In this document: one piece after another, positions 1 to 16,182 of the stretch
Position numbering within the stretch: position 1 is the stretch's first letter
Layout of the letters: every line of letters starts with the position of its first letter
Virus genome (UHGV): UHGV-0039965
Reading direction: 5' to 3' (one strand)
DNA from: a virus
DNA length: 16,182 nt
Program-made: the position numbers and the translations under genes
The notes under the pieces: generated by a model
Told to the model about the DNA's origin: nothing
Seen by the model: only the letters and a program-made list of their open reading frames with translations
Database searches by the model: none

Positions 1-14
1 CAAAGCGAGGTAAA

Positions 15-41: not shown

Positions 42-49
42 AACACAAA

Positions 50-469: not shown

Positions 470-635
470 GTTTGAAAACTCCCAATATTAAAAATATGTC
501 AGCATCTAACGATAACAACGTTCAGCACCAGAGACTCTTCGTTCTCCGGCTTACGCCTAAAAATATCGCAGGTGCCGTTTGCAGTCGACATCTGTTAATA
601 CTAAATTCATACCGCCACCGGCTCGCCGAGCCCAT

Positions 636-1679: not shown

Positions 1680-1682
1680 TCA

Positions 1683-1907: not shown

Positions 1908-2068
1908 TAATTAAAAGGATTTCATAATGAGAATTAATTTTAGTAGTCGGAGAGGTATTAGTATTTCGGCGTCAAAAAAAATACCATCAGGTTGTTTTAC
2001 ATTTATGTTCGTAGTTTTTTTTATTATTTTTATACTTGTTAAGTGCTCTGGTAGCGCTTGATTTTGTA
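1896..2068. other. AT-rich 173-bp spacer between tail genes U and X
   Basis: Markedly AT-rich by eye, with long T/A runs, in an operon whose other junctions overlap or are under 20 bp apart. Contains a 44-codon plus-strand ORF (1927-2061) for a hydrophobic peptide with AAGGA 9 nt upstream of its ATG. Confidence 0.4.
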
Positions 2069-2497
2069 TTAATCTAGCGAAGCTCCATAATATTCGAGCG
2101 TGAGTGAAAAGTCCTGCGATTTAGGTGTTCCGCCCATCAAAAAGCTGTTTTGCGTTTCAGTTAGTTCTCGCAGCACCCAGTACCCTTTCACCTCCCCGGT
2201 CCCCAGCACTAGCTGCTGGGGTTCTCCCGTGTTCCCGAGCGCTCGCAAATCTGTCAACAGGCCGACGCCGCACCCGTCAAGAAATAAAGCGTTTATCTTT
2301 CCATCGATAGTAATTGTGGGGTTCGGTCGTCCGGTTATCTGCAACGCGTCGTTTTTCCCGAATCGTGTTTGCTGAGCCCAGCGCCAGGCGTCACTACGTT
2401 GCAGTTTGTTGTACGCTACTGTTGATATAGCAAAAATGAAATCACCCAGGCCGAGCATGATATCCTCAGCACCGTTTATTGCATCACTCATTGTCAC
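2069..2497 (-). CDS. Phage tail protein U (P2 gpU-like)
   Basis: 142-aa ORF; N-terminus ...IMLGLGDFIFAISTVAYNKLQRSDAWRW... resembles gpU. Its start overlaps the tape-measure stop by 4 nt. Confidence 0.85.
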   Translation of the reverse strand: MTMSDAINGAEDIMLGLGDFIFAISTVAYNKLQRSDAWRWAQQTRFGKNDALQITGRPNPTITIDGKINALFLDGCGVGLLTDLRALGNTGEPQQLVLGTGEVKGYWVLRELTETQNSFLMGGTPKSQDFSLTLEYYGASLD

Positions 2498-4134
2498 CCC
2501 GCCGCCGCTGGTTTATCAAACATCGCGCCACGATTGTACGAACTCGCAGCCTGTCTCAGTCCATCGAGCACCCCCGACGCTGCAGATTGTTGTATTGACT
2601 GCGGATCTGTCGCACCGACAATATTGATTTCGATTTTATTGTTTTGCTCCGGCGCAGGTGTCGAGACTGCCTGCTTCAACGTATCAATATTTAACGTCGA
2701 CGAATCCAGTGCTGCAGGCGCGGTATTTTTATTTACCATCCCGGATAATGGATTAACAAACGCGAGCATTGATTCTGCCTGAGATTTTGCCTGTTCTTGC
2801 CGTTCTGGATGCCGCATATTTTCGACAGCCTCTTCGGCTTTTGCCTTCGCAATATTATCAGCAGTCAATCCAGCGTTCGGTGAATATTTACCTCCCGAAT
2901 CCATAAACTCTTGATATGCCCGATTATATTCGTCATTATAAGTTTTCTGTTCTTCATCTGATTTTTCATCCGGAATAAGCCACTCCAGTTTCTTTACGAC
3001 AGCCCATATAATCTTCCCGAATTTGACGCAACCTTCTCCAAAATTGACGATGCCATCCCACATTTTTTTCATATTTTCTGGTTTTACCCACTCAGTAATT
3101 GTGCTGACAAAACCACCCTGATTATCCTTAAACCAGGATGTAAATGTTTCACGTACTGAGTCAAACGTCGGCGCGAGTTCCCCCCCGATTTTACCGAGTG
3201 TATCTGCAAGTCCCGACGTAATAGAGCCCCACAGATTTGTCACTGATACATGCGCACGCGCCGCCCCTTCCGCACCCTCTTTTGTTAACAAATTCGACTT
3301 TTGCGCGTCAGACATTGTCTGTTCCCAGCTTTTACCCGTCGCCTTCATATACGTCATGATCTTATTAGCCTCGCCCCCCATGAGCTGGTCAGCGAGGCTC
3401 GCCGCTTGCTTCTCATCTTTCATTTCAGAGATGCGACGCATAACCTCATTAAACTGTTTTTCCCGATCCCAGCCAGCCATTCGTTTTTTCGTCAGGCCAA
3501 TTTGAAATAACATGGGATTCAGGCTTTTTTCGTTTCCGATTTCGCCGATTTTATTTGTAAGTTCTTCAGACAAATCCCCGATATTTTCGCCGTTCAGGCC
3601 CGCGGCTTTACCAATATTTTCCCACGCAGCGTATTTTTCGACGCCAACGCCGTAGGACTTCGCCAGACCGAGTTTTTCTGACGTCTCTGCATTCATTGCC
3701 AGCGCACCAGCTGCAGCACCGCCAATGAGCCCTGCCGCGCCAAGTGTCCCCCATTTGATACCCCGCCCCGTAGCCCTCACCGCACCTGCGGCGGCTCGTC
3801 CGCCCCATTTTGCAGCTCCTTTTGCGCGACCCGTCCACTTCTCCAGCTGCTGTTTTTTAGCAAGTTGAGTATTCAGCGCCTCCTGGTCCTGCGTTGTCGC
3901 TTTTATCCGACGGTCCAGCTTTTGATACTGAGCAGATAAATCAGAAACGTCTTTACCTGCCAGTTTCATTGCTGCGATTTTGTCTTTTAATTTATCCTGA
4001 CTTTTCGTTAATTTCCCGACAGTAGACGACGTCTGCCGAATCGCATCATTGAGTTCTGTTGTACCGCGACGAAACGACGGGTCTATTCGCCCACCGAATA
4101 CAACCTGCGTTTTAAAGTTTTGAGAAATAGCCAT
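2494..4134 (-). CDS. Tail tape measure protein (P2 gpT-like)
   Basis: 546-aa ORF with an N-terminal coiled-coil-like K/Q/E-rich region, a Gly/Ala-rich hydrophobic stretch (GAAKWGGRAAAGAVRATG...GAAGLIGGAAAGALA) and a long mixed C-terminal region. It lies between the E chaperone and U. Confidence 0.85.
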   Translation of the reverse strand: MAISQNFKTQVVFGGRIDPSFRRGTTELNDAIRQTSSTVGKLTKSQDKLKDKIAAMKLAGKDVSDLSAQYQKLDRRIKATTQDQEALNTQLAKKQQLEKWTGRAKGAAKWGGRAAAGAVRATGRGIKWGTLGAAGLIGGAAAGALAMNAETSEKLGLAKSYGVGVEKYAAWENIGKAAGLNGENIGDLSEELTNKIGEIGNEKSLNPMLFQIGLTKKRMAGWDREKQFNEVMRRISEMKDEKQAASLADQLMGGEANKIMTYMKATGKSWEQTMSDAQKSNLLTKEGAEGAARAHVSVTNLWGSITSGLADTLGKIGGELAPTFDSVRETFTSWFKDNQGGFVSTITEWVKPENMKKMWDGIVNFGEGCVKFGKIIWAVVKKLEWLIPDEKSDEEQKTYNDEYNRAYQEFMDSGGKYSPNAGLTADNIAKAKAEEAVENMRHPERQEQAKSQAESMLAFVNPLSGMVNKNTAPAALDSSTLNIDTLKQAVSTPAPEQNNKIEINIVGATDPQSIQQSAASGVLDGLRQAASSYNRGAMFDKPAAAG

Positions 4135-4524
4135 CGATTTTCATGACCTCGTTTACATAGAAATTAAAAACCCGGTACGGCAGGTCCATTTGCGTATCGG
4201 GCGGGATGGCAAGTTTTTTCGCAATAAACGGAATCAGAATAACTATATCTGATGTCGGTCTTTCGGGGGCTTTACCAGTTCGTTAAACGCGGCCTCCATT
4301 TGATCGTAATCGCACGCAGGCAGTGCATATAAATCCTCACGCTCCAGATTTGCCAGGCGCGCCAGCATTGTCGCTGTCCGCTCTTCAAGACCACTTTTAT
4401 CGTTACTGAACATAATGCGGTCGCGTAATTTTGGTTCGCGAATAGTAATTGTATCGCGGCTCTCACCCTTAATAATAAACGGGCGAGAGAGCGTAATAGT
4501 CATACTGTCTAATAATGATTCCAT
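4112..4524 (-). CDS. Putative gpE+E' product made by a -1 ribosomal frameshift near the 3' end of the E gene
   Basis: The -1 frame is open for about 52 codons from the last ~10 codons of E, through the 108-bp E-T spacer, to a TAA at 4112-4114 inside the first codons of T. Predicted total is about 137 aa. No canonical X_XXY_YYZ heptamer; the only slip candidates are in GTAAAGCCCCCGAAAG at about 4261-4275. Confidence 0.35.
4243..4524 (-). CDS. Tail assembly chaperone (P2 gpE-like), 0-frame product
   Basis: 93-aa ORF between the tube gene and the tape measure, the position of gpE in P2-type tails. Confidence 0.75.
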   Translation of the reverse strand: MESLLDSMTITLSRPFIIKGESRDTITIREPKLRDRIMFSNDKSGLEERTATMLARLANLEREDLYALPACDYDQMEAAFNELVKPPKDRHQI

Positions 4525-4536
4525 TTTATTTGCCTT

Positions 4537-5049
4537 TTAATATACATGGAGAATACGAGCAACGCCCGCAAGAACGTCAACACCATTAATTACTCGTTTC
4601 ATTTTTGCAGGATGAATCTCGTAAATAACTTTTCCATTTTGAACTCGTTTATAATAGCTCGGCGCAATCGTTACTGATTGCCCAACTGCTGATTTTGAAT
4701 CAGTCCCCTGCGCGTCATCAGTAATCGCCGTAATAAGCCCCTCATATGTATCAATACGTTCAAAATTGACACCGTAATTGTCAGTATATGCACTTCGAAT
4801 TTCGAACCTTGTTTTAGCACCTGGTATTAATCCAAAATACCCCATCACACCAGAATCGGAGCCAGAGACTTTAAAACTGGCTGACATTTTCTCCATTCCT
4901 CCGTCCAGAGTGATAGCTGTATCCATCGCGCCTGTTTTAAACTCGTCTTCGATTATTTTCATATCGACTGGAGTATATTCAGTACAATTTAAAACCCGTT
5001 CGCCCTGCACGAATAGCGCAAACGCGCGGTAAGCGTTGCTGTCTGACAT
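4537..5049 (-). CDS. Tail tube protein (P2 FII-like)
   Basis: 170-aa ORF immediately downstream of the sheath gene; C-terminal ...KRVINGVDVLAGVARILHVY resembles the conserved C-terminus of FII-type tube proteins. Confidence 0.85.
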   Translation of the reverse strand: MSDSNAYRAFALFVQGERVLNCTEYTPVDMKIIEDEFKTGAMDTAITLDGGMEKMSASFKVSGSDSGVMGYFGLIPGAKTRFEIRSAYTDNYGVNFERIDTYEGLITAITDDAQGTDSKSAVGQSVTIAPSYYKRVQNGKVIYEIHPAKMKRVINGVDVLAGVARILHVY

Positions 5050-5066
5050 ATTTAATCTCCGAATTA

Positions 5067-6569
5067 TCAGGCTGCTTCTTTAAAAAGGGAGGCCAGTGCT
5101 TCAACTGTATAGTCATTATTAATGCGGTACATTAACGTAATTGTTTGTGCCGGAGATTTCGGACCAAAATCAACATTAATATAAAGATTACCCGCAGCCA
5201 GGCTTTCTTTTGTATTCAGCTCACTGTCTAACCACGCACGCCCTCCGTTAATCGCACCCTGCTCCTCTAATTTGTGCAGATATGCGTTTATCGACTCGAC
5301 AACGTCTGTTCCGAGGTGCAGGTCTATCGGACGAACAATAAAATCGGTCATCATTGCCCGGGCTATAGAATCCTCAATTACGTCAGCTGTTCGACGAACG
5401 CTCTCGAAAGACCATTGCGGGCTGAGGCTGCACAAATAGTTACCCCAGTGTCTGAACCCGTCATAGCGAATAATCGTGCTGACCTGGCTGGCATTCAGCA
5501 GGTTCGCTGTGCAGTTTGTCTCACCAATAATAAAATCGTCGACTTGTTCAAGCCCTGTAACTCCGTAGATATTCTGGTTCGATTTACTCCACCAGAATCC
5601 TTTTTCATTATCAATTCGGGCTCGTAAACCAGCAGCGATAGCTGAATACGGACGAGATAACCCACTGACATCACTCGTAGAATAAACGCGAGGTCGCAAC
5701 AACTCAGCGCGTCCGCCGAGTTTTTGCCTGCGATTCACAACGTCTGCAGGGGTAGCAGCGCGCGGAGAGTCGATATAACACACTCCCCGGAGTTTATTTG
5801 CAACCACTTCAAGCTGAGCCGCTATTTCGTCTCGTGCGCTGTAATCCGGCGCTATAATAATTCGCGGGGTAACTTCGTTAATTTGCGCTGACGTCAAAAG
5901 CGAATTAATTCCGGCGATAACATTTTCGCTCATATCAGCGTCGTCGCTACTCTCTACAACGCGAACAACAACGATTAATGCATCAGTCTGATTTAAAATA
6001 TCAGAAATAGCGGGGGGCAGAGTCCCGTATTTCCCGAGCAGGGCGGCTTTCTTCTGACTACCTGCAATTAATACAGGAGAATTAATCGGGAATGCGTCAT
6101 CTGTTCCACCTGATAAATTTGTTGGTGGAAGACCAAATACTGTACCGGTTCCGGAATGCTCGCCACCAAAAGTTACATTAATCCACTCTCCGTCTGTTTT
6201 CCCCTCTCTATATTCCTGATTCTGATCATACATTTTGCCGGGGGTCATTCCCGGCTCCGTAATCATCGTTAATTTTTTTGTTCCGTCGGGCAGCGTGCTA
6301 TATCCTGGAGTGCAGGTTGCGCCCTCAACTGTCATATCTACAATTTCAACAACCCATTTATTCCCGTCGCTGCCCGGTGATACAGTTGAAAACTCAACGA
6401 GATTATCAGCCAGCGATGAGCCCCACGTTAATGATGCTCTCGTAGCCTCCGCGACGTTCGTCGCAGTACCAACAATCCCAATCACGGAAATATCTACTGT
6501 GTTGATCTCTTTTGTGCCGTCGTCGTATTCGAGCGTGCGAATACCGTGCAAAAAATTAGTTACGCTCAT
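5067..6569 (-). CDS. Contractile tail sheath protein (P2 FI-like)
   Basis: 500-aa ORF. The segment LRARIDNEKGFWWSKSNQNIYGVTGL ... STIIRYDGFRHWGN ... AGNLYINVDFGP matches the conserved sheath core as I recall it for FI-type proteins. Its start ATG overlaps the stop of the upstream -1 frame (ATGA). Confidence 0.9.
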   Translation of the reverse strand: MSVTNFLHGIRTLEYDDGTKEINTVDISVIGIVGTATNVAEATRASLTWGSSLADNLVEFSTVSPGSDGNKWVVEIVDMTVEGATCTPGYSTLPDGTKKLTMITEPGMTPGKMYDQNQEYREGKTDGEWINVTFGGEHSGTGTVFGLPPTNLSGGTDDAFPINSPVLIAGSQKKAALLGKYGTLPPAISDILNQTDALIVVVRVVESSDDADMSENVIAGINSLLTSAQINEVTPRIIIAPDYSARDEIAAQLEVVANKLRGVCYIDSPRAATPADVVNRRQKLGGRAELLRPRVYSTSDVSGLSRPYSAIAAGLRARIDNEKGFWWSKSNQNIYGVTGLEQVDDFIIGETNCTANLLNASQVSTIIRYDGFRHWGNYLCSLSPQWSFESVRRTADVIEDSIARAMMTDFIVRPIDLHLGTDVVESINAYLHKLEEQGAINGGRAWLDSELNTKESLAAGNLYINVDFGPKSPAQTITLMYRINNDYTVEALASLFKEAA

Positions 6570-6954
6570 TTTATTCCTTCTCTATTTTCACCAATTCGCG
6601 TCGCTATTGCTTCTTTAAGCTCGGCCAAGTTTTCGATTTGCGCGTCAGATGCGGTTCCGGCATCTACTGCACACTGAATTGAGAATGCCTCAATTGACAG
6701 ATCGCCAACAGTCCGTAATGTAGTCTGGAGTTTTTGCGTCTGCTCTTTTTTACAAATTTAGAAATGCTCCCATAATCCCCGCTCAGCGCTCTTTCATATA
6801 AAACCCTACCGTGTTCCTCGCAATCATTTTTCATTGCGGTGAATGGAATGTCGTTTCCAATCCCGTCAATATCGCAAATAATATTTATAGATAACCCATG
6901 CTCGTCATTAAAAACAGGGTTTGTTATTTTTCTAAATGAATCAACACTTATCAT
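6566..6954 (-). CDS. Full-length frameshift product (~131 aa) of the fibre-chaperone-like gene
   Basis: A -1 shift at the heptamer enters a frame open for 59 codons (EQTQKLQTTLRTVGDLSIEAFSIQCAVDAGTASDAQIENLAELKEAIATRIGENREGIK). That frame has no ATG or GTG of its own and ends in a TGA overlapping the sheath ATG. Confidence 0.45.
6664..6954 (-). CDS. Fibre-chaperone-like protein, 0-frame product (96 aa) of a gene carrying a -1 frameshift site
   Basis: ORF starting in a TAATG overlap with the tail-fibre stop. The first ~72 aa look protein-like; the last ~26 aa after the A-run (SRRKNSRLHYGLLAICQLRHSQFSVQ) look like out-of-frame sequence. Confidence 0.55.
   Translation of the reverse strand: MISVDSFRKITNPVFNDEHGLSINIICDIDGIGNDIPFTAMKNDCEEHGRVLYERALSGDYGSISKFVKKSRRKNSRLHYGLLAICQLRHSQFSVQ
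6745..6751 (-). other. Canonical -1 slippery heptamer A_AAA_AAG (recoding signal or homopolymer frameshift hotspot)
   Basis: Minus-strand sequence GGGAGCATTTCTAAATTTGTA AAA AAG AGC: the 0-frame codons are GTA AAA AAG, so the heptamer is in the correct register, with a Shine-Dalgarno-like GGGAG 15 nt upstream. This resembles the E. coli dnaX frameshift cassette. Confidence 0.5.
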
Positions 6955-8165
6955 TACGCAATCCTAATAGCTAAAAAACAGGCAGTCCCAATATCACCGA
7001 CCCCGCCTGGTGAATACGCCATAGCTCGCCATGAGCCAACAAGGGGTGTGTCATAAAATGGTTTTGTGGCAATATCCGTGTTATATGAACCGGTATTATT
7101 TATACTAGCGTAATATAAATCACCTCCAGCCCATATGGAGCCCGGTAGTATTTGTGGTGCATGATTAATAGCGACAAGCGCATAAGTATTAACCGCGCCA
7201 ACAACACCTATTTCCGGTGATGGGTCCGGTGAAAGACTTATATCTATGTTGCCATTTTCATCCGGCGACTCCCCGTTAATCGTTTTAACCGGTTTAAGAT
7301 TAGCCTCATTCCAGTATTTATACGTCATTCCGCCACACAGTAATACCAGGCCATCATAGTGAACTCCGCGTAATCTATAAAAAACCTTCTGATTGTTTTC
7401 TCCACGGGTCGAAAAATCTAAATAATCGCCCGACACATCTGATAAACCAGCAAGTGAAAACAACGTCAAATCAGTGCCCGGTTTGTTTATATTTATTTGT
7501 TTTTTAGAGGATAAAACGTCTTCAAAAATCACATCATCTTTAAAAGTATTTGGATGAGTAAATGCATTACCCTTATCTCTATATGCAACGTCCCCATCTA
7601 TACCAATATTTTTCCGCGCAGCCTGCTGAGCAGTTTCACCATTTGCGGGAATTTCAGATAAGTTTTTACTTATCTGCAAATATTTTTTGTCAGCTTCCTC
7701 GGGAGTTACGTAGTTGTCATATACTACAACATTAACCGTAGATGTGCTGGACACCGCGAGTGTGTATTTATACGTGATTGAAATCAGCGCACCGTTGCTG
7801 TCCGTAGGTTTTAAAATGTCCGGCGAGCGCGCCACAGAGTACAGCTCGCCTTTATCTGTTAATATCCCCACCTCACGGATAGTATAGCCCCCAGTGTCTG
7901 GCGGTACGTAAAGTGTAAAGATAACCTGGTTACCGCTATTTTCTGCGGATTTAATATCCCCACGATACGTCTCGTGAATTAATGCAGTTCGTGCCGGGTC
8001 CGGTGTTACGTCGTCGTTTCCGTTTGCGTCGCCAATAACGAATTTATTCAGCACCACGGGTACACCCGATGCCAGCGCAGCGGCTTCAAGTTGCGCCCCC
8101 CGGTCTGTCAGTACCGCATAAACCTGGCTCGCGCTCGCTTTCAGATTTGATTTTAATTTAGCCAT
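6954..8165 (-). CDS. Tail fibre protein (P2 gpH-like N-terminal domain)
   Basis: 403-aa ORF; N-terminus ...VIGDANGNDDVTPDPARTALIHETYRGDI...YTIREVGILTDKGELYSVA follows the conserved N-terminal domain pattern of P2-type fibres, with a Ser/Thr/Asn/Gly-rich variable C-terminal part. It follows gpI with an 8-nt overlap. Confidence 0.8.
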   Translation of the reverse strand: MAKLKSNLKASASQVYAVLTDRGAQLEAAALASGVPVVLNKFVIGDANGNDDVTPDPARTALIHETYRGDIKSAENSGNQVIFTLYVPPDTGGYTIREVGILTDKGELYSVARSPDILKPTDSNGALISITYKYTLAVSSTSTVNVVVYDNYVTPEEADKKYLQISKNLSEIPANGETAQQAARKNIGIDGDVAYRDKGNAFTHPNTFKDDVIFEDVLSSKKQININKPGTDLTLFSLAGLSDVSGDYLDFSTRGENNQKVFYRLRGVHYDGLVLLCGGMTYKYWNEANLKPVKTINGESPDENGNIDISLSPDPSPEIGVVGAVNTYALVAINHAPQILPGSIWAGGDLYYASINNTGSYNTDIATKPFYDTPLVGSWRAMAYSPGGVGDIGTACFLAIRIA

Positions 8166-8784
8166 TAGGTCCTATCTCCACTAACAAACTCACAATTGGC
8201 GAGCCTGATATATATAGCCCGCCGTTAATTTTTACACCGCCGTCGCCGTCTGCTGGGATATTTACGCCTATTTTCGCGTAAGGCGCACCAGCTATAAAAA
8301 ATTCACCATCGACACCCGTTTCAAAATTTATTTCTTTTAATAAGGAACGGCAATTTTTTGCATCAAATATTTGTGCAATAAAGGTATTCAATAGTTCTAA
8401 ATCTAACCCTATACTTTTTAGCAGATATATTTTAATTGCGAATGTATACGGGTCGTCCCTGGGCGTGGCTTCAAACCACTCTCTCATTTTGCTCTCAAAT
8501 CCCACCGTTAATAATGCTCGTTCGACGGCACCACGCGTGCCGCGATGTTTATTTTGCCAGGCTGCGGCCTTAATAATTTCGCGTTTTTGCTGCTCGCTCC
8601 AGTCGGGGTTCCAGTAGGTGACCGCGTACTCCCACGCCAGCCACGGCAACAGATTTGCAGGGCACAAATCGGGATTTTTAATAATTCGAATATCGCCAGG
8701 CAGATCGCCGACGTGAGATAAAACAACCTCAAGCGCCCTCTCAGGGGTTATTGCGTTCGGAGGCAGTACGCTTTGACTTGTCAT
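8158..8784 (-). CDS. Baseplate protein I (P2 gpI-like)
   Basis: 208-aa ORF; the motif NPDLCPANLLPWLAWEYAV closely matches the gpI signature as I recall it (NPDTCPANLLPWLAWAFSV). Confidence 0.9.
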   Translation of the reverse strand: MTSQSVLPPNAITPERALEVVLSHVGDLPGDIRIIKNPDLCPANLLPWLAWEYAVTYWNPDWSEQQKREIIKAAAWQNKHRGTRGAVERALLTVGFESKMREWFEATPRDDPYTFAIKIYLLKSIGLDLELLNTFIAQIFDAKNCRSLLKEINFETGVDGEFFIAGAPYAKIGVNIPADGDGGVKINGGLYISGSPIVSLLVEIGPNG

Positions 8785-8786
8785 GG

Positions 8787-9707
8787 CTACCCCATTTGCA
8801 CGCTGAGTTTGATTTCTGTGCAGTACGGAGCCTGTCCGACGCCAGCAATCACATCCTCTGTTGGCGATATCAGAATCACACGCTCCGTTCCGTCACGATG
8901 TATCGCGTCGTAAATTCCTGACAGGGCTGCTGTCGCCCCGATTTTATGTTGTGTAGCCACGTATATAGCTAAATCGCTTTGAGCACCGTTGAGCAACACG
9001 TTCTGATCGGGACCGAGCCCCGCTACGATAACGGCTTCAACCCGGTAATTCAGGTTCGACGCAGGTTTTACAGTCACGAAATCAGTCAGCGGTCGAGTAT
9101 CGTCAGGAGACAGGGCCGCATTCACTGTATTCAGTAGTGATTGAGGCGGAGTGCCGTCGCCGGTTCGCGACAAAACATACATATCGACGTATCCAGGCTG
9201 GGTCACCGGCGGGCCGTACGCCTGAGCTGACAGAACGTCGGGATCACTCGACAGCGCGAAATAGTTATAGGCGTTCGTACTGCCGGCAGTATTCCGCGCG
9301 TACCATGATAGCTGTATGCGATGACGATACTCGTCGTCACTCTCGTAAACCCCCTCAGTCGGAGGAATTGCGTCAGGATTAGCTGGCGTTATCAACAGCC
9401 GCAGGCAGTCAAAATTAGCGCCGATCTGGTCGAGGTCACTCCCTTTTGCAAACGCGAGCAATACAGCGAGCATCCCCTGATTTACCCGAGCTGTAATAAT
9501 GATTTCTCTGTATGCAACTATTTCCAGCAGTTTAACGGCCGGGTCTGACTCCAGGAGTGCGTTAAATTGTGGATATAATATCTGCAATTCTGACAGTAGA
9601 CTGGATTTAACATCTGAAAATAATGGGGTTTTAACGAATGCTGGCGGCGGCAGCAGACTCATATCAATAGTTTTCACTATCGAATTCTGAACTGTTGATG
9701 TTATCAA
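8787..9707 (-). CDS. Baseplate protein J (P2 gpJ-like)
   Basis: 306-aa ORF between the W-like and I-like genes; size and position fit gpJ. Its start overlaps the W stop (ATGA). Confidence 0.85.
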   Translation of the reverse strand: MITSTVQNSIVKTIDMSLLPPPAFVKTPLFSDVKSSLLSELQILYPQFNALLESDPAVKLLEIVAYREIIITARVNQGMLAVLLAFAKGSDLDQIGANFDCLRLLITPANPDAIPPTEGVYESDDEYRHRIQLSWYARNTAGSTNAYNYFALSSDPDVLSAQAYGPPVTQPGYVDMYVLSRTGDGTPPQSLLNTVNAALSPDDTRPLTDFVTVKPASNLNYRVEAVIVAGLGPDQNVLLNGAQSDLAIYVATQHKIGATAALSGIYDAIHRDGTERVILISPTEDVIAGVGQAPYCTEIKLSVQMG

Positions 9708-10045
9708 AATATCAGTTCCATATTATTAAACTCTAATCGCTGTTGTGTTTCGATATCTGTTGCGATAATTAATATTGTTATTTTCCCGATGTCCACTGCT
9801 AACACATTTATTCTGTCAATTCTGACGCGTGGTTCCCAGCGTGCTATTGCTCCTGCACTTTCCATTATTATTCTCATAGCAAGCGACGGATCAGTGGGAT
9901 TATCAACGAGGTCAAATAATTTGCTGCCGTATTCCGGCAACATTACACGGGTTCCCAGCGGGGTCGTTAAAATATCAACGATAGACTGACAAATGTGATC
10001 AGTCCCCGATAAAGGCTTACCGGTGTTACGGTCCATTCCAAGCAT
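9704..10045 (-). CDS. Baseplate protein W (gpW/gp25-like)
   Basis: ORF between V and J. I place the start at the ATG at 10043-10045 (MLGMDRNTGKPLSGTDHICQSIVDIL..., 113 aa), 3 nt after the V stop. The longest ORF runs to 10093 but would overlap V by 46 nt. Confidence 0.8.
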   Translation of the reverse strand: MLGMDRNTGKPLSGTDHICQSIVDILTTPLGTRVMLPEYGSKLFDLVDNPTDPSLAMRIIMESAGAIARWEPRVRIDRINVLAVDIGKITILIIATDIETQQRLEFNNMELIF

Positions 10046-10047
10046 AT

Positions 10048-10950
10048 TTACGCCATTGGTTGGTTCGGTTGTTGTGTTTCCCCGTCCGGACATATATGAG
10101 TGTGTCCGTTGTACGTTGTGCGGACCTCAGTCATTGTGCCTTGTCGGTCCTGCACCTCTTGCCCTGCTAACACACTACCGCGAGTTGTGATATTACCTGT
10201 TCCACCGTTATCTCCAGTGACAGAAATATCGTTACGGAATGTCGCTAATTTATCTACTACTAATGTCTCGGTAATATGCGTTGGACCAGCTAGTGTTATA
10301 CCACCCGGAGCCCACGCGCTGATTGTTTGAGCTGTCAGCGATATTCTGTTCGCAGCAGTAACACTAACAGAACTCGTTGCTATAACGTTCACTAAATCAG
10401 CATGTGCGTTAATTGTATCTGTCGCTGTGACATTAATAATATCAGCGTCTGCGTTAATTAATTTCCCACCATGGATATTAACTACATTTTCGCTATTAAT
10501 AGTAACATCTGCGCGTCCAAATATTTCTATTTCAGACTCACCGAGTATTTTTACCACGCCGTCCGGTACGCCCTGCCATGTCAGAGTGTGATTTTTTGTG
10601 TTATACGTCATCGTAGCCCCGTCACAGTATGCAGTGACATGATCATGGGGGTCATTGCTTGACGGAGCTTTGTCGTCAATGTGCAGCCCGAGCATAACTA
10701 CACCGTTCCGCGTATCCCCACCCTCAGAAACAACAGTAACGGGATCGCCCACTGATGGTGCGCTCCAGTCGACGCGTTCTGAGGTGGCGTGAGTAAACCA
10801 CTGCAGCCAGCCTGACTGGTGTTCGCCACCAAATGAGACTCGGCAGCGTGGAGGATTCATTTTAACTGCAGCTATCGTGCCGCGTTTAACTGCGTCACGC
10901 AGCCTGCGCGCGTTCTCCGCTGCAGCATATTCATCGTCCGATTGGGCCAT
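10048..10950 (-). CDS. Baseplate spike protein V (P2 gpV-like)
   Basis: 300 aa from the ATG at 10948-10950 (MAQSDDEY...), which has GAGGG 9-10 nt upstream. C-terminal ...YNGHTHICPDG carries the HxH motif typical of the metal-binding spike apex. The ORF track begins 5 codons earlier at 10965. Confidence 0.8.
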   Translation of the reverse strand: MAQSDDEYAAAENARRLRDAVKRGTIAAVKMNPPRCRVSFGGEHQSGWLQWFTHATSERVDWSAPSVGDPVTVVSEGGDTRNGVVMLGLHIDDKAPSSNDPHDHVTAYCDGATMTYNTKNHTLTWQGVPDGVVKILGESEIEIFGRADVTINSENVVNIHGGKLINADADIINVTATDTINAHADLVNVIATSSVSVTAANRISLTAQTISAWAPGGITLAGPTHITETLVVDKLATFRNDISVTGDNGGTGNITTRGSVLAGQEVQDRQGTMTEVRTTYNGHTHICPDGETQQPNQPMA

Positions 10951-11467
10951 AATAGTCGCCCTCATGTTCTGCGCCGATATCTGGTGCTATTCCGACGTAT
11001 ATATTTTTCAGGGTCCCCTGTGAGGGATAATCGAAAATATCTGGACCAACGCCTACAACCTGCGTGAACGACACGCACTGAACTGAATGCGAACCGACTG
11101 ACTGCCCGTTTTTAATCCAGTCGCACGGTTCCGCGTCGCTGAATTTTGCCGGTTTAGTTCCGGGACCGAACATTCGCCCATTGATCCAGCTCGTCATATA
11201 GAGCGCTGCATTCTGCGATTTCAGTCCGTACTGATCAGCTGCAAATTCACGCAGCAAATACAAATTACACGACAGCTCGACTGACTGAATTGAGCCTGGA
11301 ACCGATTCGTCACTCTGTGACCAGTTGCTGATTTCCAGGAACAGAGCTGGCGTTTCAAATCCAGCCGGAATTTCCGGATAAATTCCGAATGTTTTGATGA
11401 ACGGTATTTGTAAAACCGCGCCTTTAACGCGATCAAGATATTCGTCAAATGCATCCAGTCCGCTCAT
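10931..11467 (-). CDS. Tail-module protein of unknown identity, in the position of the P2 tail completion proteins (R/S)
   Basis: 178-aa ORF translationally coupled to the upstream ORF (ATGA overlap) and overlapping the V start. Assignment is by position only. Confidence 0.5.
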   Translation of the reverse strand: MSGLDAFDEYLDRVKGAVLQIPFIKTFGIYPEIPAGFETPALFLEISNWSQSDESVPGSIQSVELSCNLYLLREFAADQYGLKSQNAALYMTSWINGRMFGPGTKPAKFSDAEPCDWIKNGQSVGSHSVQCVSFTQVVGVGPDIFDYPSQGTLKNIYVGIAPDIGAEHEGDYYGPIGR

Positions 11468-11766
11468 AATCGTTTACCTGTTTTTGGGTCTACGTGGACA
11501 TTACCTTTCACGCGACCGCGCAAATCTTTCTCAAAAAAGCCCATAAAAACAGGGCCAATGTTTTCAAAAATATAATCATCGATAGCATCCTCCAGCGCGT
11601 CGTGCACAGGTACGCGAGCCTCTTCGATTCCTCCGCGATCCAGTCGAATCCAGACACTTTTCGCACCGTAGCGTTTCGCTACGAATGAATCGGGCCAACT
11701 CATCATCGCCAGCCCTGCACTTTTGGGTGTAAAAGTTGCCCCTCTAGCGCCTTTTTTGGTTTTCAA
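11464..11766 (-). pseudogene. Possible 5'-truncated remnant of a tail-module gene
   Basis: The track's 100-aa ORF begins at a TTG. The frame stays open about 40 codons further upstream with no ATG or GTG; the first ATGs are internal (MMSWPD...). It sits at the edge of a 336-bp non-coding gap. Confidence 0.4.
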
Positions 11767-12102
11767 AAACAGGCCGGTCTCAAGATCGCGAGGCTGTTTT
11801 TGCCTCCGTGGATTTTGTAATCGCCCCTTTAGCTCAGATACCCGGAAATCATTCAGACCGTACCAGAGCTTGGCGCTGCTCAGGTCCGTGGTAACTCCAG
11901 TTTATCGCCAAACATGTCCTTTCCCTCCGGGAAACCAATGATATTGACGATATTACACCCACAACGATTCGTTTTACGTCACTCCGCAATCACCATACAT
12001 ACGTACCAATCCGTACATTCCCACCACAAAAATGGCATTCGGCGGGCACTGGTAATGGATTTTTAACGTGTGCTATTGCCTTGCGACGTATTTTCAACTC
12101 AC

Positions 12103-12327
12103 TCATACAGCCTCCCTGCTCTCAAATGGGCGAATATTGGTTGGTTCTCCACACGGAATAGCCCAACCCAGCCAGGTAAATATTTTCAGGTCACACATCG
12201 CGTCATACCGTTCGCCAGGATTCACATCCACCATGCTGCAGGCAATTTCATATTGTTCACCATTATCAGTCAGTGCGATCTGGTCATTAATAAACCGGGG
12301 CACAAATGCCAGAAAAAGTTCTTTCAT
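12103..12327 (-). CDS. Hypothetical small protein (74 aa)
   Basis: Last gene of a four-gene run with overlapping stop/start codons. No family recognised. Confidence 0.4.
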   Translation of the reverse strand: MKELFLAFVPRFINDQIALTDNGEQYEIACSMVDVNPGERYDAMCDLKIFTWLGWAIPCGEPTNIRPFESREAV

Positions 12328-12635
12328 GAAATCCTCCGCTCAAAATAAACATACTGATTCACCGCACCGATCGACATTTCGAGTTTTTCCGCGATATCCT
12401 GGCGATTAATACCCGACTGATGTAATTCCCTTGCCAGCTCGATATCCTCCTGGCGGTATTTCACTGACTGGTGATAATTACCCCGCAGATACATACAGAT
12501 TTTCAACTCGCGCGCTTTTGTGCGTACCGCAGCACCGGTTCTTCCAATAAGCTGCCCTATACGTTCAACTATCATGCTGCCCGCACATTGTTTGATGATT
12601 ACGACTTCCGCACGCACCCACCGTTTGTATTTCAT
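12324..12635 (-). CDS. Small putative DNA-binding protein with two helix-turn-helix-like segments
   Basis: 103 aa; segments IVERIGQLIGRTGAAVRTKAREL and INRQDIAEKLEMSIGAVNQYV look like HTH motifs. Coupled by ATGA overlaps to both neighbours. A regulatory role is inferred, not demonstrated. Confidence 0.45.
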   Translation of the reverse strand: MKYKRWVRAEVVIIKQCAGSMIVERIGQLIGRTGAAVRTKARELKICMYLRGNYHQSVKYRQEDIELARELHQSGINRQDIAEKLEMSIGAVNQYVYFERRIS

Positions 12636-12868
12636 TGCTCCATCCCCCCTCTCCAGTAGTTCAGACGCTCTCTGAAAAATTCCCGGTACGTATCCGGCGT
12701 CATTCCGATTTGCTCAATCACGCTTCCCCTCGGAATACGTTTCTCAAAGAGTTGGCGGATCAGCGTCGCCGCTCGCATGTCGTAGTGCTCTTTAAGCAGG
12801 TATTCCTGAGGCCATTTGGCGCGGTTGTGTGGTAAGCCGGGCGGCAGGTAATCTGATTGCCCTGCCAT
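12632..12868 (-). CDS. Hypothetical small protein (78 aa)
   Basis: ORF coupled to both neighbours; basic and aromatic-rich. No family recognised. Confidence 0.4.
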   Translation of the reverse strand: MAGQSDYLPPGLPHNRAKWPQEYLLKEHYDMRAATLIRQLFEKRIPRGSVIEQIGMTPDTYREFFRERLNYWRGGMEQ

Positions 12869-12869
12869 A

Positions 12870-13280
12870 TCACGTCCCTTTCTTTGCTATCGGAGTGATG
12901 GAACTCAGCAGCAGGCGACAGCGACCGGGCGCGCCAATGCGCTGTCCGGTTATCTTGTCGTAAGTTTCATGCGGTGAGGCACACCAGGTTGTCGCTGTTT
13001 CGTGGAGTTTCACTTGCCGCTCACCATTTCTGCGAATCGCGATCCCGATGTGCGTTTTACCCTTACATTTCACTGCTGGCGCTGCGGCTACGGATGCCTG
13101 ACGGGCAGGCTGAGCTGGTGTTGAAAAATTGCCTGCTTTGGGTCTTGGTACAAAAACCGCACGAGTGCGCGCACGTGGCCCGGCGTTCATATTCCACAAA
13201 ATGACGTCGAGATAGTTTTTACCGTCGTCTATGTGTCCTTTGTCCGACGGGTACTCTAATTTGCCTGAAATGGTGGTCAT
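12870..13280 (-). CDS. Hypothetical protein (136 aa) downstream of the helicase
   Basis: ORF 38 bp downstream of the helicase stop, same strand. It occupies the position of lambdoid nin-region genes. No family recognised. Confidence 0.45.
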   Translation of the reverse strand: MTTISGKLEYPSDKGHIDDGKNYLDVILWNMNAGPRARTRAVFVPRPKAGNFSTPAQPARQASVAAAPAVKCKGKTHIGIAIRRNGERQVKLHETATTWCASPHETYDKITGQRIGAPGRCRLLLSSITPIAKKGT

Positions 13281-13318
13281 TGGTCTTTCCTCGGTTATTT
13301 CACGCTGGTCATGCGTGG

Positions 13319-14710
13319 TTAAAATGGGTCCGTATTAAAGTTTTTGTTTGAATACCGTTTTTCACGTTTTCTCGGTTGCTCTGCCTCCTTCTGGATGCGT
13401 AATTTTTCGCGTGCTACGTGTTGATCAACTGGCAGGAAATGCCCATTCCGGAATTCCTGATAAATAATTTCACCTGCCCCGCCAGAACGGTTTTTACCGA
13501 TAATCACCTCGGCGATACCCTTTGCAGGTGAATCAGGTGTGTAAACTTCATCGCGGTACAAAAACAAAATGCTGTCAGCGTCCTGCTCAACACTGCCGGA
13601 ATCGCGCAGGTCCGACATCACCGGGCGACGCTGGCCAGCAGGTCGAGAATCCACCTGGCGGGAAAGCTGGCTAAGAGCAAAAACAGGGGTATGCAGACGC
13701 ATGGCCATAGTCTTCATGTTGCGGGAGATATGCCCGACAGCGAGATCGTGGCGCTCGGCCTTCGGTTTTTTGATCAGGCCCATGTAATCAACACCAATCA
13801 ACTTCAGGTGCGGATAACGGCGTTTATGAGTCTCTGCAATGGCGCGGATCTGCTCAATCGTCAAATCAGTGGCATCAACAATCCAGATATCGCGATCCTG
13901 CATGATTGCAAGCGCGGCGGTTAATCTGGTCAAATCCTCATCGTCCATTTCTTTTGGATTACGCAGACGCGACGTGGACATATTCCCAGCCCCGGCAACG
14001 GTACGTTCAACAATCTGCTGAGCGCCCATTTCCATGCTGAAAAACAGTGCGCCGCCGCCATCTGCGGTAACGCCATCGATAATCTTCAGGGTAAATTCCG
14101 TTTTCCCCATGCCTGGACGACCGGCAACCACAACAAGGTCGGTCATGTTGATACCGCCCAGGGCGACATCCAGATCCTCGACTCCGGTTTTCAGCATCAT
14201 TTCCTGCGCGTCGCCAGACATCCGTTTATCAACGGTGTCAATGTAGAGCGGTAACAGCTCTTTGATGTGTACCGGCTGGACTGTGCCGGTAGCGGCGCTC
14301 ATATCCAGCACCTGAGCAACATGAGATTCAATAACCTCATCACGCTGACTCTGGTTTACAGCGTTACGGATACCATCCGCGCCAGATTGCAACAATGCCG
14401 CCATTTTGCGGCTCCGCCATGCCCGCACCATTTTCCCGGCATAGCCTTTCAGATTCGGTACCGTTGCCGGGATCCGGGATATTTGAGACAGATCCGCAAG
14501 GCTGGAACCGCCCAGCGCTTCGCTGATAAACAACATGTCGATCATGCCGTTCGCCAGTGCCTGCTTTTTGATTTCGCTGAAAGCGCGACGGTGAAACACG
14601 ATGCTGAAGGCTTCCTCCGGAGTAGTGGCAATCACATCAAACGCGTCAGGCGTCGCGCCACCGTTAATCAGACCAGCGAGAACGATCGCTTCCAGTTCTT
14701 CTGGATTCAT
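13319..14710 (-). CDS. Replicative DNA helicase, DnaB family (phage-type)
   Basis: 463 aa with Walker A GRPGMGKT, Walker B-like IWIVDATD, and C-terminal DnaB-like motifs (SQLSRQVDSR, DLRDSGSVEQDADSI, VIIGKNRSGGAGEI). Start is coupled to the upstream ORF stop. Confidence 0.9.
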   Translation of the reverse strand: MNPEELEAIVLAGLINGGATPDAFDVIATTPEEAFSIVFHRRAFSEIKKQALANGMIDMLFISEALGGSSLADLSQISRIPATVPNLKGYAGKMVRAWRSRKMAALLQSGADGIRNAVNQSQRDEVIESHVAQVLDMSAATGTVQPVHIKELLPLYIDTVDKRMSGDAQEMMLKTGVEDLDVALGGINMTDLVVVAGRPGMGKTEFTLKIIDGVTADGGGALFFSMEMGAQQIVERTVAGAGNMSTSRLRNPKEMDDEDLTRLTAALAIMQDRDIWIVDATDLTIEQIRAIAETHKRRYPHLKLIGVDYMGLIKKPKAERHDLAVGHISRNMKTMAMRLHTPVFALSQLSRQVDSRPAGQRRPVMSDLRDSGSVEQDADSILFLYRDEVYTPDSPAKGIAEVIIGKNRSGGAGEIIYQEFRNGHFLPVDQHVAREKLRIQKEAEQPRKREKRYSNKNFNTDPF

Positions 14711-15183
14711 AATGCCCCTTCCCTGGTTTTACGCAGTGTTTCTGGCTTCATCAGGTAATCAAACCCTGCCCGCCAGCCGGTGCGATATTCGCCGCCGAAA
14801 TAGAAGTCTGGGGCGTTATCGCGGAATTTTTCGAAGTAGCCGATAAATGCGCCAAGAGTTTGCGTGCGCATATGTGCCAGCAGGCGCAGGATTGCCCGAC
14901 GGCGGTCAGTATCAATTTCAGCTATAGGTAGCAGGTCGCCCAGAATCTCGTTGTAGCCCTTCACAACTTCAGCAGGGTCAACGGCAGCCTCAGCAGTGGC
15001 CCACGTCTCAGCGTCAGCCAGGTATCCGTCAAACCGGTTTACGCGGCAAATGTTCGCAGGTTTCGGAACGCTTCCGCTACGACGGCGCCATGTCGCAATA
15101 ACCCAACGAATTACTAACTGAATCTCAGCCACGCTGTACCTATGTGAAATGCACCACACCATGAAAGTGAGAGTCTGGTACAT
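14707..15183 (-). pseudogene. C-terminal remnant of a phage replication initiator (O-like) gene
   Basis: Only about 130-145 aa of plausible protein, ending in a helicase-coupled C-terminal region (...FYFGGEYRTGWRAGFDYLMKPETLRKTREGAL). No N-terminal DNA-binding domain. The first ~12 codons of the track ORF are antisense to the plus-strand ORF at 15149 and probably not real. Confidence 0.55.
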
Positions 15184-15598
15184 ATTGAATGGGGTGCGCG
15201 GCGAGTCTGCGGCTTACGGTTGCACTCCGTACATCTACGATACTAGACATGGACCAACAAGCGACGGCGAAGCGCCGAAGAAATCCTGGACGGATGCTGT
15301 TAAGAAAGCGCTATCCCCTCTCGGATTCAGCGCCGATATTTTCATGGGCCTGTACGACAATCCGGAATACCGCCAGAGGAATAAAGCTGAGTTTGATATC
15401 AAGAATGCCAGCGAGAATGCGGAAGATGCTACCCGTCTTCGTAAGGAACTGGATGAGAAGCTGATCAACGTTGCCAATACGCTGGCCGCCGCGGTAACCA
15501 CCAACGAAGTAAACAAGGTATTTGGCCTCATCGCCCGCGAAGTGGATGTACACCGAAAAGCAGCAGAAGCCAAAGGCGATAAAGAATATTCATCGTAA
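15149..15598 (+). pseudogene. N-terminally truncated Rad52/Erf-family single-strand annealing protein
   Basis: Contains the Rad52-superfamily signature KKSWTDAVKKALSPLGFSADIFMGLYD, preceded by VRVWYILNGVRGESAAYG (compare FVRV...DVGYG in Rad52), but starts too close to this motif for a complete N-terminal domain. Transcribed divergently from the O-like remnant. Confidence 0.5.
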
Positions 15599-15878
15599 AT
15601 TGAAAACTGCTAAAAACACATTTACTGATGCACAGGGGGCTATCCGGGTAATTATCGATAGCAAAGATAAGATCCCGGACGAGTATGAAGGCGTGTCACT
15701 TGTTGAAGTAGAAACGGTTATTACACCAAACAAGCGAGCCATTAAAGAAGTGATTGAATCTGCGGAGGCGGTTGCCGCAGAAATAATGGCGCGTGGAGAA
15801 ACACCACCTGCCGAATTACTTAACCCGGTACCAGGCGCACATCTGGAACGCGGCGAACGTTCGCTGAGGGTACGCTAA
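15546..15878 (+). CDS. Hypothetical protein (~110 aa from the ATG at 15546)
   Basis: The track ORF begins at a TTG at 15522; the first ATG is at 15546. It is in the +1 frame relative to the Erf-like ORF and overlaps its 3' end. Acidic and Ala-rich. Could be a separate gene or a frameshifted continuation. Confidence 0.4.
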   Translation: MYTEKQQKPKAIKNIHRKLKTAKNTFTDAQGAIRVIIDSKDKIPDEYEGVSLVEVETVITPNKRAIKEVIESAEAVAAEIMARGETPPAELLNPVPGAHLERGERSLRVR

Positions 15879-16132
15879 TGCTTAAACTCACATTAAAGCG
15901 TGGTGACGCGGTTCACCTGGTACTTGCCGATGGTACCAATGGCATTATTGAAGCACGGAGCCGCTGCGAACTTGGGCTACACCTGCCAGAAAACATTAAG
16001 GTCACGCGGGAGAAATCGGCATTCCCCCCACCAGAACTGATTACGCCTAAGGCAGCCTGGAAGAGAAGCAAGCAATTTCCGGGCATAAGAACCCACGACA
16101 GACAGCAGCATATGACCGAAAAGTTAAAGTAG
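15878..16132 (+). CDS. Small protein (84 aa) with CsrA-like N-terminal pattern
   Basis: Start overlaps the upstream stop (TAATG). In an ungapped comparison with E. coli CsrA, MLKLTLKRGD...ELGLHLPENIKVTREK matches MLILTRRVGE...RIGVNAPKEVSVHREE at M1, L2, L4, T5, G9, G33, P37, V42, R44 and E45. Compared by eye only. Confidence 0.35.
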   Translation: MLKLTLKRGDAVHLVLADGTNGIIEARSRCELGLHLPENIKVTREKSAFPPPELITPKAAWKRSKQFPGIRTHDRQQHMTEKLK

Positions 16133-16182
16133 TGCCCGTAGTTGGTGGCCAGAGAAAATGAATGATGATGCGTCCAGAGAAA

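Follow-up and report, generated by a model that had tools for sequence, protein, structure and literature searches.

The four small genes at positions 12103-13280 of the 16,182-nucleotide stretch of virus genome UHGV-0039965 (hereafter the window) are most probably genuine genes that form the promoter-proximal part of a delayed-early, nin-like row in a decayed lambdoid prophage, and that came to lie beside tail genes by deletion. The result is mostly a correction, in that the seeming regulatory cassette before a tail operon is better read as a deletion artefact, and the genes themselves, here called A to D, as standard early-region content.

Gene content and coding evidence

All four open reading frames listed in the preliminary description are present and lie on the minus strand: A at 13280-12870 (136 aa), B at 12868-12632 (78 aa), C at 12635-12324 (103 aa) and D at 12327-12103 (74 aa). 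Each starts behind a Shine-Dalgarno-like sequence and strongly matches a PHROG family (E 1e-25 to 1e-86), and the RefSeq CDS calls in Escherichia coli NZ_CP166713.1 are identical to them. Ratios of dN/dS amount to 0.08-0.12 against the Salmonella orthologues (0.11 for A and 0.08 for D) and to 0.04-0.31 against E. whittamii. Their ribosome-binding sites, family matches and low dN/dS bear out the claim that they are genuine genes, tightly packed and co-oriented. The stop/start overlaps reported for the whole series hold for B/C and C/D, both of the ATGA type, but not for A/B, where TGAtATG leaves a 1-nt spacer; nor is the series limited to four, since a fifth ORF of 38 aa (12106-11990, minus strand) is also coupled, through an ATGA overlap on the stop codon of D.

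The gene upstream of A is indeed a helicase, namely an intact DnaB-type replicative helicase of 463 aa (13319..14710, minus strand; Pfam DnaB_C 2e-69, DnaB N-terminal domain 5.6e-7; RefSeq 'replicative DNA helicase'). The A-D proteins occur on about 1000 contigs, and A-D are found intact together with the helicase in 454 of 5426 complete E. coli genomes, which means that they could still be in use. At the DNA level, a search of the block against phage genomes returned two short matches only, to D6 and BUCT708. Rfam at gathering threshold returned nothing over the whole window, and a repeat scan of 11700-13400 found a single short imperfect inverted repeat, with a terminator-like count equal to the shuffle expectation.

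Deletion junctions and flanking remnants

The interval 11767-12102 had been taken for an intergenic gap before the tail operon, with the gene for a helix-turn-helix (HTH) protein as the last one before it. It is instead D (74 aa), not C (103 aa), that stands last, and the interval is a deletion junction flanked by gene remnants, comprising the interior of a truncated neck gene (to 11886), the junction, 104 bp of unassigned sequence and a DUF3268 remnant. On the tail side, 11464..11886 (minus strand) matches phrog_27, 'tail completion or Neck1 protein' (E 3.1e-16), over profile positions 105-199 of 199, and represents the last 141 codons of a neck/tail-completion gene (226 aa) corresponding to WP_000774516.1 (positions 7591-8271 of L001, the equivalent locus in the closest genome). 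This fragment, the first tail-module gene still surviving, lost its 5' end in the deletion marked by scar 1, a strandless feature at 11885..11886 that was located by exact-match extension from both sides and carries a 2-nt microhomology. Relative to the closest genome, E. coli NZ_CP166713.1, 3987 bp are missing at this point (L001 8014-12000), a segment that encodes head protease, decoration, capsid, FI-like and head-tail genes on the L001 gene map; a query spanning the junction found no single place covering at least 80% of it in any complete E. coli genome.

On the other side of the junction, the fifth ORF (11990..12106), traced by tblastx and BLASTP to positions 10829-11263 of the Salmonella prophage L010, is 60% identical to the DUF3268 gene there over its first 36-40 residues (E 5e-13), and this Salmonella counterpart matches PF11672 at 1e-38. 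Judged by this similarity, the fifth ORF is the N-terminal remnant of a DUF3268 zinc-finger-domain gene, which has 144 aa in intact relatives.

A second junction lies beyond the helicase. The fragment at 14704..15183 (minus strand) was identified through PHROG, RefSeq and tblastx as the C-terminal part of a RepO/O-like replication initiator: it matches PHROG replication-initiation families at E 2e-32 to 4e-41, is labelled 'RepO, incomplete, missing N-terminus' in RefSeq, and is 90% identical to L010 7484-7918 by tblastx, with the similarity to the intact Salmonella gene ending at about 15138. Scar 2, again without strand, was placed at 15136..15138 by tblastx of 14600-16182 against L010 and by the L010 gene map; it joins the RepO fragment to part of an early-left gene of the YdfE_N type, and the cI/cro/cII-like/pR region has been lost there along with the O N-terminus (L010 2056-7483).

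The proposed history thus involves two losses. One deletion would have taken the repressor, cro and early-promoter region with the N-terminus of O, while the other would have extended from the interior of the DUF3268 gene through Q, the lysis, terminase and head genes into the neck gene. As everything between the DUF3268 gene and the neck gene was removed, the block would adjoin the tail genes by accident; its native promoter would be gone, and it is probably poorly expressed or silent.

The early gene row in intact relatives

The original setting of the block can be read from four Salmonella prophages (L010-L013), whose proteins share 66-76% amino-acid identity with those of the window and whose genes follow the order int..cI-cro-YdaT-72 aa-O-DnaB-A-B-D-C-101 aa-DUF3268 ... 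DUF1367-YbcO-Q (PF06323)-holins. From the replication genes to Q, as in the delayed-early region of lambdoid phages, the row runs on one strand, with about 7 kb of small genes separating the C/DUF3268 stretch from the Q antiterminator and the holins. Since A-D lie between the replication genes and Q in these relatives, they would mark the start of a nin-like delayed-early region, in which Q is the late activator. In general form, the intact row would read cro, cII-like gene, O, DnaB, A, B, D/C, DUF3268, further small genes, Q antiterminator and lysis genes, and gene order and strand suggest rightward transcription from the cro-side early promoter.

Among the identities offered in the preliminary description, nin-region remnants came closest, and the position between the replication genes and Q agrees with it; the families themselves do not, as Pfam and NCBIfam show no canonical lambda Nin family (NinB to NinH) for any of A-D, and families of nin-region type, DUF1367 and YbcO, are carried by the relatives only farther downstream. 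The likeness to the lambda nin region and the delayed-early pR operon therefore concerns position and orientation in the intact relatives, as well as the layout of many short, packed and often ATGA-coupled genes of mosaic content. Unlike in lambda, the helicase here is a phage DnaB and not a lambda-P-type loader, and A and B behave not like variable cargo but like constituents of the replication module. A and B may accordingly be viewed as the fixed tail of that module, and C and D as putative interchangeable accessory cargo, confined to the Escherichia/Salmonella lineage.

Gene B and its relation to theta and Hot

The statement that no family could be named for the four proteins does not hold for B, nor for C (below). 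[quoted passage not shown] It matches phrog_1105, 'DNA polymerase III theta subunit', at E 2.1e-27; PF06440 is the sole Pfam family matched by its own family (30 of 32 members, best E 5e-9), and three relatives carry a precomputed PF06440 match. In the PDB, the two best matches of the B-family profile are P1 HOT (1se7, E 1.3e-3) and theta (1du2, E 0.07), both nearly full length, with query positions 13-74 aligned to Hot 3-62, and hhalign of the B family against HolE plus Hot gives 82% probability (E 1e-5) over 63 columns. The similarity is colinear along the full length and includes the FxERL helix. B itself scores below the Pfam PF06440 gathering score (18.4 versus 34.6 bits, E 0.0019) and below the NCBIfam NF008207 threshold (15 versus 97 bits), and single-sequence phmmer of B against the PDB gave chance matches only, with no theta among them. 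With B sub-threshold in Pfam and theta missed by phmmer, membership in the theta/Hot family rests on profile-level evidence.

B resembles theta and Hot in its length of about 78 aa and in a common C-terminal F-x-E/x-R-L helix motif, and Hot also in being phage-borne. It is nevertheless very divergent, the profile alignment showing about 30% identity, and theta lacks the additional N-terminal segment conserved in B, MAGQSDYLPPGLP. Genomic setting differs as well: B sits in a lambdoid replication module directly after the phage DnaB and A, whereas P1 hot is located among late genes according to PMC7556043. The same paper, citing Chikova and Schaaper (2005, 2007), states that Hot can replace theta and presumably targets the replication apparatus of the host. 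By homology, the most likely role of B would be to bind, like Hot, the proofreading subunit epsilon of the host's DNA polymerase III. This 'hypothetical protein', encoded by about 8% of the complete E. coli genomes, can now be given a theta/Hot-like annotation.

Gene A, a modular protein next to the helicase

In A, a conserved motif near the N-terminus (DDGxxxxxxIxWxMNAxxRARTRxxFVPxP, about residues 17-47) is followed by a Pro-rich linker and, at the C-terminal end, by a module of the phrog_1226 type (residues 75-134); its PHROG matches are phrog_5148 (1.5e-86), phrog_4183 and phrog_1226. The N-terminal motif is common to gp16 of phage ZF40 and to the proteins occupying the same slot in 13 loci; A is a modular protein with one conserved motif and interchangeable C-terminal domains. 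Single-sequence phmmer of A against the PDB gave chance matches only, a profile of the N-terminal motif gave none, and an AlphaFold2 model built from 5 sequences was unusable, with a mean pLDDT of 36.

In the viral loci found through the N-terminal motif, DnaB lies immediately upstream in 80 of 80 and B downstream in 78 of 80, although many of these loci are closely related, so that the counts overstate the number of independent events. Starting from B, 14 of 15 loci in genomes show DnaB, one gene and then B. As A always stands between the phage DnaB and B, it probably acts with both.

Genes C and D, the variable cargo

The two HTH-like segments noted earlier in the 103-aa protein were confirmed by profile searches, and C is by these matches a small DNA-binding protein with two helix-turn-helix repeats, the N-terminal one Myb/SANT/GcrA-like and the C-terminal one HTH_23/HTH_7/sigma-r4-like. 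C belongs to phrog_323 (E 2e-25), and its family counts 325 representative relatives, many of them with 2-12 matched repeat stretches. PDB matches of the family profile include 2lvs (8.8e-8, in two stretches), Myb repeats, GcrA and resolvase HTH domains; like 2lvs, C holds two HTH units of about 45 residues within about 100 residues, and its first repeat resembles the HTH units of Myb and GcrA. In Pfam, C itself reaches only generic HTH models, all below curated cutoffs, while HTH_23 is matched by 22 of 35 relatives, and sigma-70 region 4 and HTH_7 are also found among the relatives' matches. The Salmonella orthologue (72% identity) is placed after D, and orf90 of phage D6 is 65% identical.

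D belongs to phrog_2241 (E 1.1e-33) and has a Salmonella orthologue of 74% identity directly behind B. It is weakly predicted to be all-beta: the AlphaFold2 model from 8 sequences has a pLDDT of 53, Foldseek of this model against the PDB yielded no match with E < 1, and single-sequence phmmer of D against the PDB produced chance matches only.

Alternative explanations

A role for C as activator of the late or tail operon, as suggested in the preliminary description, is extremely improbable, even though C, having two HTH units, is a protein of bona fide DNA-binding type, stands about 0.5 kb away from the first tail-module gene left in the window, and has relatives with weak matches to models of sigma-70 region 4 and GcrA, both of which contact RNA polymerase. 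The proximity on which the suggestion was built is the product of the 3987-bp deletion together with an older deletion of the Q, lysis and terminase genes, and even in the window D and the DUF3268 remnant separate C from the gap. In the intact relatives, C does not stand at the early/late boundary but about 7 kb upstream of the holins and of a canonical Q antiterminator (PF06323), which governs late control there; the phages D6, Parlo and Vibrio F89 carry homologues of C within early accessory arrays and not beside late operons, and C matches no known late-activator family. Hardly better is the case for a toxin-antitoxin pair in which C and D would supply an HTH antitoxin and a small toxin; we consider it very unlikely. 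An HTH protein beside a small protein is a common layout of such pairs, and C and D are adjacent in Salmonella as well as in the window, where they overlap by 4 nt (ATGA); that coupling, however, also joins B to C and D to the fifth ORF and is thus a property of the entire row. C precedes D in Escherichia and follows it in Salmonella, at about 72% identity, and each gene occurs independently elsewhere: phages D6 and Parlo and Vibrio phages carry C but no D, and in a Pseudomonas phage, where C is absent, a D-like sequence forms the N-terminal portion of a protein of 181 aa. None of A-D matches a toxin or antitoxin family in Pfam, NCBIfam or PADLOC, the sole match of this kind being a weak HicB-like PHROG match on the HTH of C (E 1.3e-3).

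The notion of a defence cassette fares no better in those databases, with no PADLOC family reached by A, B, C or D at E <= 0.1. In the narrower form that D, or the C-terminal module of A, is an anti-defence or host-takeover factor, it appears unlikely, though several circumstances speak for it. Early accessory rows often hold such factors; in the Salmonella relatives, the corresponding region shows AcrVA2-like and Tad2-like Pfam matches a few kb downstream; C and D are variable cargo, carried in only 12 of the 80 viral loci found through the A motif; and in Stx phages and among the early-left accessory genes of mEp460, the C-terminal module of A circulates as a stand-alone gene of about 60 aa. 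Against this, no sequence or structure match to characterised anti-defence proteins was obtained from Pfam, PHROG or the Foldseek search with D, Pfam gave no Acr- or Tad-type match for A-D, and the reading draws purely on position. The view that A-D no longer encode proteins of importance, being either chance ORFs or relics left without function in a dead prophage, deserves more weight but is still rather doubtful. The prophage indeed lacks the repressor/early-promoter region, Q, and the lysis, terminase and head genes, and a crude consensus scan of the minus (coding) strand between 11700 and 15700 found no sigma-70-like promoter, an absence that, for a search of this kind, is no proof of silence. 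Opposed to the relic reading are the four intact reading frames with their Shine-Dalgarno sites and the intact helicase, the long-term dN/dS of about 0.1, and the recurrence of the same proteins on about 1000 contigs and in 454 complete genomes. Intact frames, dN/dS and wide occurrence argue only for past function in a phage and not for present expression.

A possible replisome accessory module

The strict order of DnaB, motif protein and theta-like protein in many enterobacterial prophages provides a concrete hint that lambdoid phages with their own DnaB may also bring a factor engaging the proofreading subunit of host polymerase III. It is conceivable, if rather speculative and on present evidence improbable, that DnaB, the A-slot protein and the theta-like B constitute an undescribed three-part replisome accessory module of Enterobacterales lambdoid phages, linking the phage helicase to the host Pol III core. 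In such a module, the 30-residue motif of A (DDGCD..IIWRMNAGARAR.RS.FVP.P) would dock on the phage helicase or on the B-epsilon complex, and the C-terminal domains (phrog_1226, winged-helix-like and HTH modules) would tether the complex to DNA or to another partner.

The same trio of DnaB, DDGCD...RMNA..RAR-motif protein and theta-like protein is encoded by gp15-gp16-gp17 of ZF40, where gp17 already bears the RefSeq name 'DNA polymerase III theta subunit', and by WCS67732-67734 of vB_SmeS_BUCT708, with 2-3 nt between the genes for the motif protein and the theta-like protein in both. Beyond B, the genes of the two phages are unrelated to those of the window; ZF40 gp18/gp19 and the post-B protein of BUCT708, considered as candidate homologues of C and D, proved not to be homologous. 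The middle proteins differ in their C-terminal part, which consists of a winged-helix-like module in ZF40, of both modules in BUCT708 and of the phrog_1226 module only in the window.

Layout and authenticity of the small-gene block

The block at 12103-13280 is a piece of the ordinary early region of a lambdoid prophage remnant and comprises four minus-strand genes: A (13280-12870, 136 aa), B (12868-12632, 78 aa), C (12635-12324, 103 aa) and D (12327-12103, 74 aa), each with a Shine-Dalgarno-like sequence before its ATG. The preliminary description of four translationally coupled ORFs is essentially correct once amended: B/C and C/D overlap by ATGA, but A and B are separated by a 1-nt spacer (TGAtATG) without overlap, and the coupled series goes on past D into a fifth minus-strand ORF (12106-11990, 38 aa), whose ATG overlaps the stop of D (ATGA). 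Upstream of A, at a distance of 38 nt, lies an intact DnaB-type helicase gene (13319-14710; Pfam DnaB_C, 2e-69), before which only a C-terminal fragment of an O-like initiator gene is found.

That all four are real genes follows from their PHROG matches (A, phrog_5148, 1.5e-86; B, phrog_1105, 2.1e-27; C, phrog_323, 2e-25; D, phrog_2241, 1.1e-33), from the occurrence of the exact proteins on hundreds to about 1000 contigs, and from Nei-Gojobori dN/dS values of 0.08-0.12 against Salmonella prophage orthologues (66-76% protein identity), a comparison in which synonymous sites are saturated. Against Escherichia whittamii, dN/dS is 0.04-0.31. In the closest genome, E. coli NZ_CP166713.1, RefSeq annotates the identical four CDS, three as hypothetical proteins and one as "DNA-binding protein".

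The fifth ORF, shorter than the usual ORF-length cut-off, is what remains of the N-terminal part of a DUF3268 zinc-finger-domain gene, as judged from its 60% identity (E 5e-13) to a 144-aa Salmonella DUF3268 protein that itself matches PF11672 at 1e-38.

Conserved order of DnaB, A and B

The block consists of two layers: A and B are fixed after DnaB, and C and D are accessory. In a survey seeded on B, with one genome per species (15 loci; Escherichia, Rosenbergiella, Enterobacter, Citrobacter, Raoultella, Serratia, Yersinia and others), DnaB was followed by exactly one gene and then B in 14 loci, and C and D were present only in Escherichia. The single intervening gene, represented by A in the window, encodes 68-234 aa, and in most loci its product starts with the motif DDGCDxxxxIIWRMNAGARARxRSxFVPxPxP; a Pro-rich linker comes next, and then one or two C-terminal modules drawn from at least three unrelated types. 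A itself combines the motif with the phrog_1226 module, which is also found by itself, as a gene of about 60 aa, in mEp460 and Stx phages. An independent survey of viral contigs, seeded on this motif, gave DnaB immediately upstream in 80/80 loci, a B-family gene downstream in 78/80 and C and D in only 12/80, all of the E. coli type. Many of these loci are closely related, so the number of independent events is smaller than the counts suggest.

Phages ZF40 (gp15-gp16-gp17) and BUCT708 resemble the window in carrying the trio of DnaB, motif protein and theta-like protein, but their genes past B are unrelated. In E. whittamii (NZ_JACSQI010000002.1, locus positions 4231-6763), A-D are 92-99% identical to those of the window and the neighbouring DnaB only 29.5%, which therefore reveals a sharp mosaic joint at the short DnaB/A spacer. 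This 38-nt spacer (13281-13318 in the window) contains a small hairpin, CACGC-7 nt-GCGTG. The conserved synteny is testable and mildly interesting.

The replication module of BUCT708 (OM816834.1, "Stenotrophomonas phage vB_SmeS_BUCT708") shares 70-76% protein identity with this E. coli prophage, and its motif protein is near in length and sequence to that of a Raoultella genome; such similarity is unexpected for a reported Stenotrophomonas phage, whose host assignment or origin may deserve a check.

Predicted functions of the four products

Gene B encodes a newly nameable member of the theta/Hot family (theta being the DNA polymerase III subunit HolE), on consistent evidence at the profile level. 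As a single sequence it has diverged too far for a phmmer search of the PDB to pick up theta, and it scores 18.4 bits against Pfam PF06440, under the cutoff of 34.6. Its PHROG family is, however, annotated as "DNA polymerase III theta subunit", and PF06440 is the sole Pfam family matched by 30 of 32 B-family members (best E 5e-9). In the PDB, the family profile scores best against P1 Hot (1se7, E 1.3e-3) and, next, E. coli theta (1du2, E 0.07); the alignments span nearly the whole length and have an FxERL helix in common, and hhalign of the B family against HolE and Hot gives 82% probability (E 1e-5, 63 columns). According to the statements in PMC7556043 that cite Chikova & Schaaper (2005 and 2007), Hot is able to stand in for theta, and the proposal is that it acts on the replication machinery of the host to the phage's benefit. 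By analogy, we infer that B would bind the host epsilon subunit.

For A and D, no matches were obtained in Pfam, NCBIfam, PADLOC or the PDB. AlphaFold models from shallow alignments were poor (pLDDT 36 for A; 53 for D, with a predicted all-beta fold), and Foldseek with the D model returned nothing below E = 1. The fixed position of A points to a role linked to replication; D behaves like cargo.

The two HTH-like segments noticed earlier in the product of C are borne out by its family, for which an exhaustive representative search yielded 325 relatives, in many of which a unit of about 45 residues occurs 2-12 times. The family alignment contains two units, the first Myb/SANT/GcrA-like (W..E...L...AG......IG...GR...AV..KA..LGI) and the second a classical HTH; in profile searches the family matches 2lvs, whose 105 aa contain two matching stretches, as well as Myb repeats, GcrA and resolvase HTH, and HTH_23 is matched by 22 of 35 relatives. 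The suggestion that C activates late genes from its place before the tail operon is unsupported, because its homologues in D6 (65% identical), Parlo and Vibrio F89 lie among early accessory genes and the intact relatives possess Q.

A nin-like row in intact relatives

Four Salmonella prophages bearing a D orthologue provide the intact map. Their left part holds the integrase, further on Gp157 and YdfE_N, and then the repressor, cro, YdaT (cII-like), a 72-aa product and O (354 aa); DnaB (463 aa), A (136), B (78), D (74), C (102), a 101-aa product and DUF3268 (144 aa) follow, and about 7 kb of further small genes, DUF1367, YbcO, the Q antiterminator (PF06323) and holins complete the right part. 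On this gene map, the A-D block is the start of a nin-like delayed-early row running from the replication genes to Q. The order is A-B-D-C in Salmonella versus A-B-C-D in Escherichia, with C 72% identical, a swap that is single-gene shuffling typical of such rows.

Of the readings offered in the preliminary description, genuine co-oriented genes and nin-region remnants stand; of those on which its interest hung, the late activator and the toxin-antitoxin pair do not, and the anti-defence cassette is unlikely. At about 12-17 kb into each Salmonella locus, genes with AcrVA2-like and Tad2-like Pfam matches, one with a DnaJ domain and one for a large DNA methylase form a variable accessory/anti-defence zone, which is deleted from the window.

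Deletion scars and prophage decay

The neighbourhood of A-D is a decayed lambdoid prophage. In E. coli genomes as well as in phage records, a 2-kb query across the block has matches only in two separate pieces, meeting at 11885/11886; among 5426 complete E. coli genomes no single place covers at least 80% of the query, and none therefore has the window's junction. Extending exact matches into NZ_CP166713.1 shows that the window is short of 3987 bp (8014-12000 of that locus), a stretch with the genes for head protease, decoration, major capsid, FI-like and head-tail proteins, and that the joint has 2 nt of microhomology. What is left here of a 226-aa neck/tail-completion gene is accordingly its 3' part, the ORF at 11464-11766 (phrog_27, profile positions 105-199 of 199), 5'-truncated and with an open frame reaching the scar (11464-11886). 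In NZ_CP166713.1 itself, the 332 bp past D end in a fusion with the final 23 bp of the portal gene, so an older deletion had already taken all that once separated the small genes from the head protease.

At a second scar (~15136-15138), the minus-strand O-like C-terminal fragment is joined to a plus-strand fragment of an early-left YdfE_N-type gene. Absent here is the equivalent of 2056-7483 in one Salmonella prophage locus (L010). With this stretch the repressor, cro, the cII-like gene and the N-terminus of O are lost, hence also the early promoters, and the whole immunity region is gone. A consensus scan found no sigma-70-like site on the minus strand of 11700-15700.

The surviving structural module (window 1-11766 and ON470596.1) is a P2-like contractile tail with sheath, tube, baseplate V/W/J/I and fibre, and fuller copies combine this tail with lambda-like head genes (gpW, portal, protease C, D-like decoration, E-like capsid, FI). 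At 16167-17570 of the NZ_CP166713.1 locus, the remnant's own integrase is a fragment, directly followed by the intact integrase and early genes of a separate P2-like prophage, so that two elements lie in tandem at the site. The remnant element adjoins yecA. Three "complete phage genomes" of about 20 kb (vB_EcoM-569R10, -720R5 and -783R5) end within the terminase gene and contain host yecA, and so look like partial prophage extractions.
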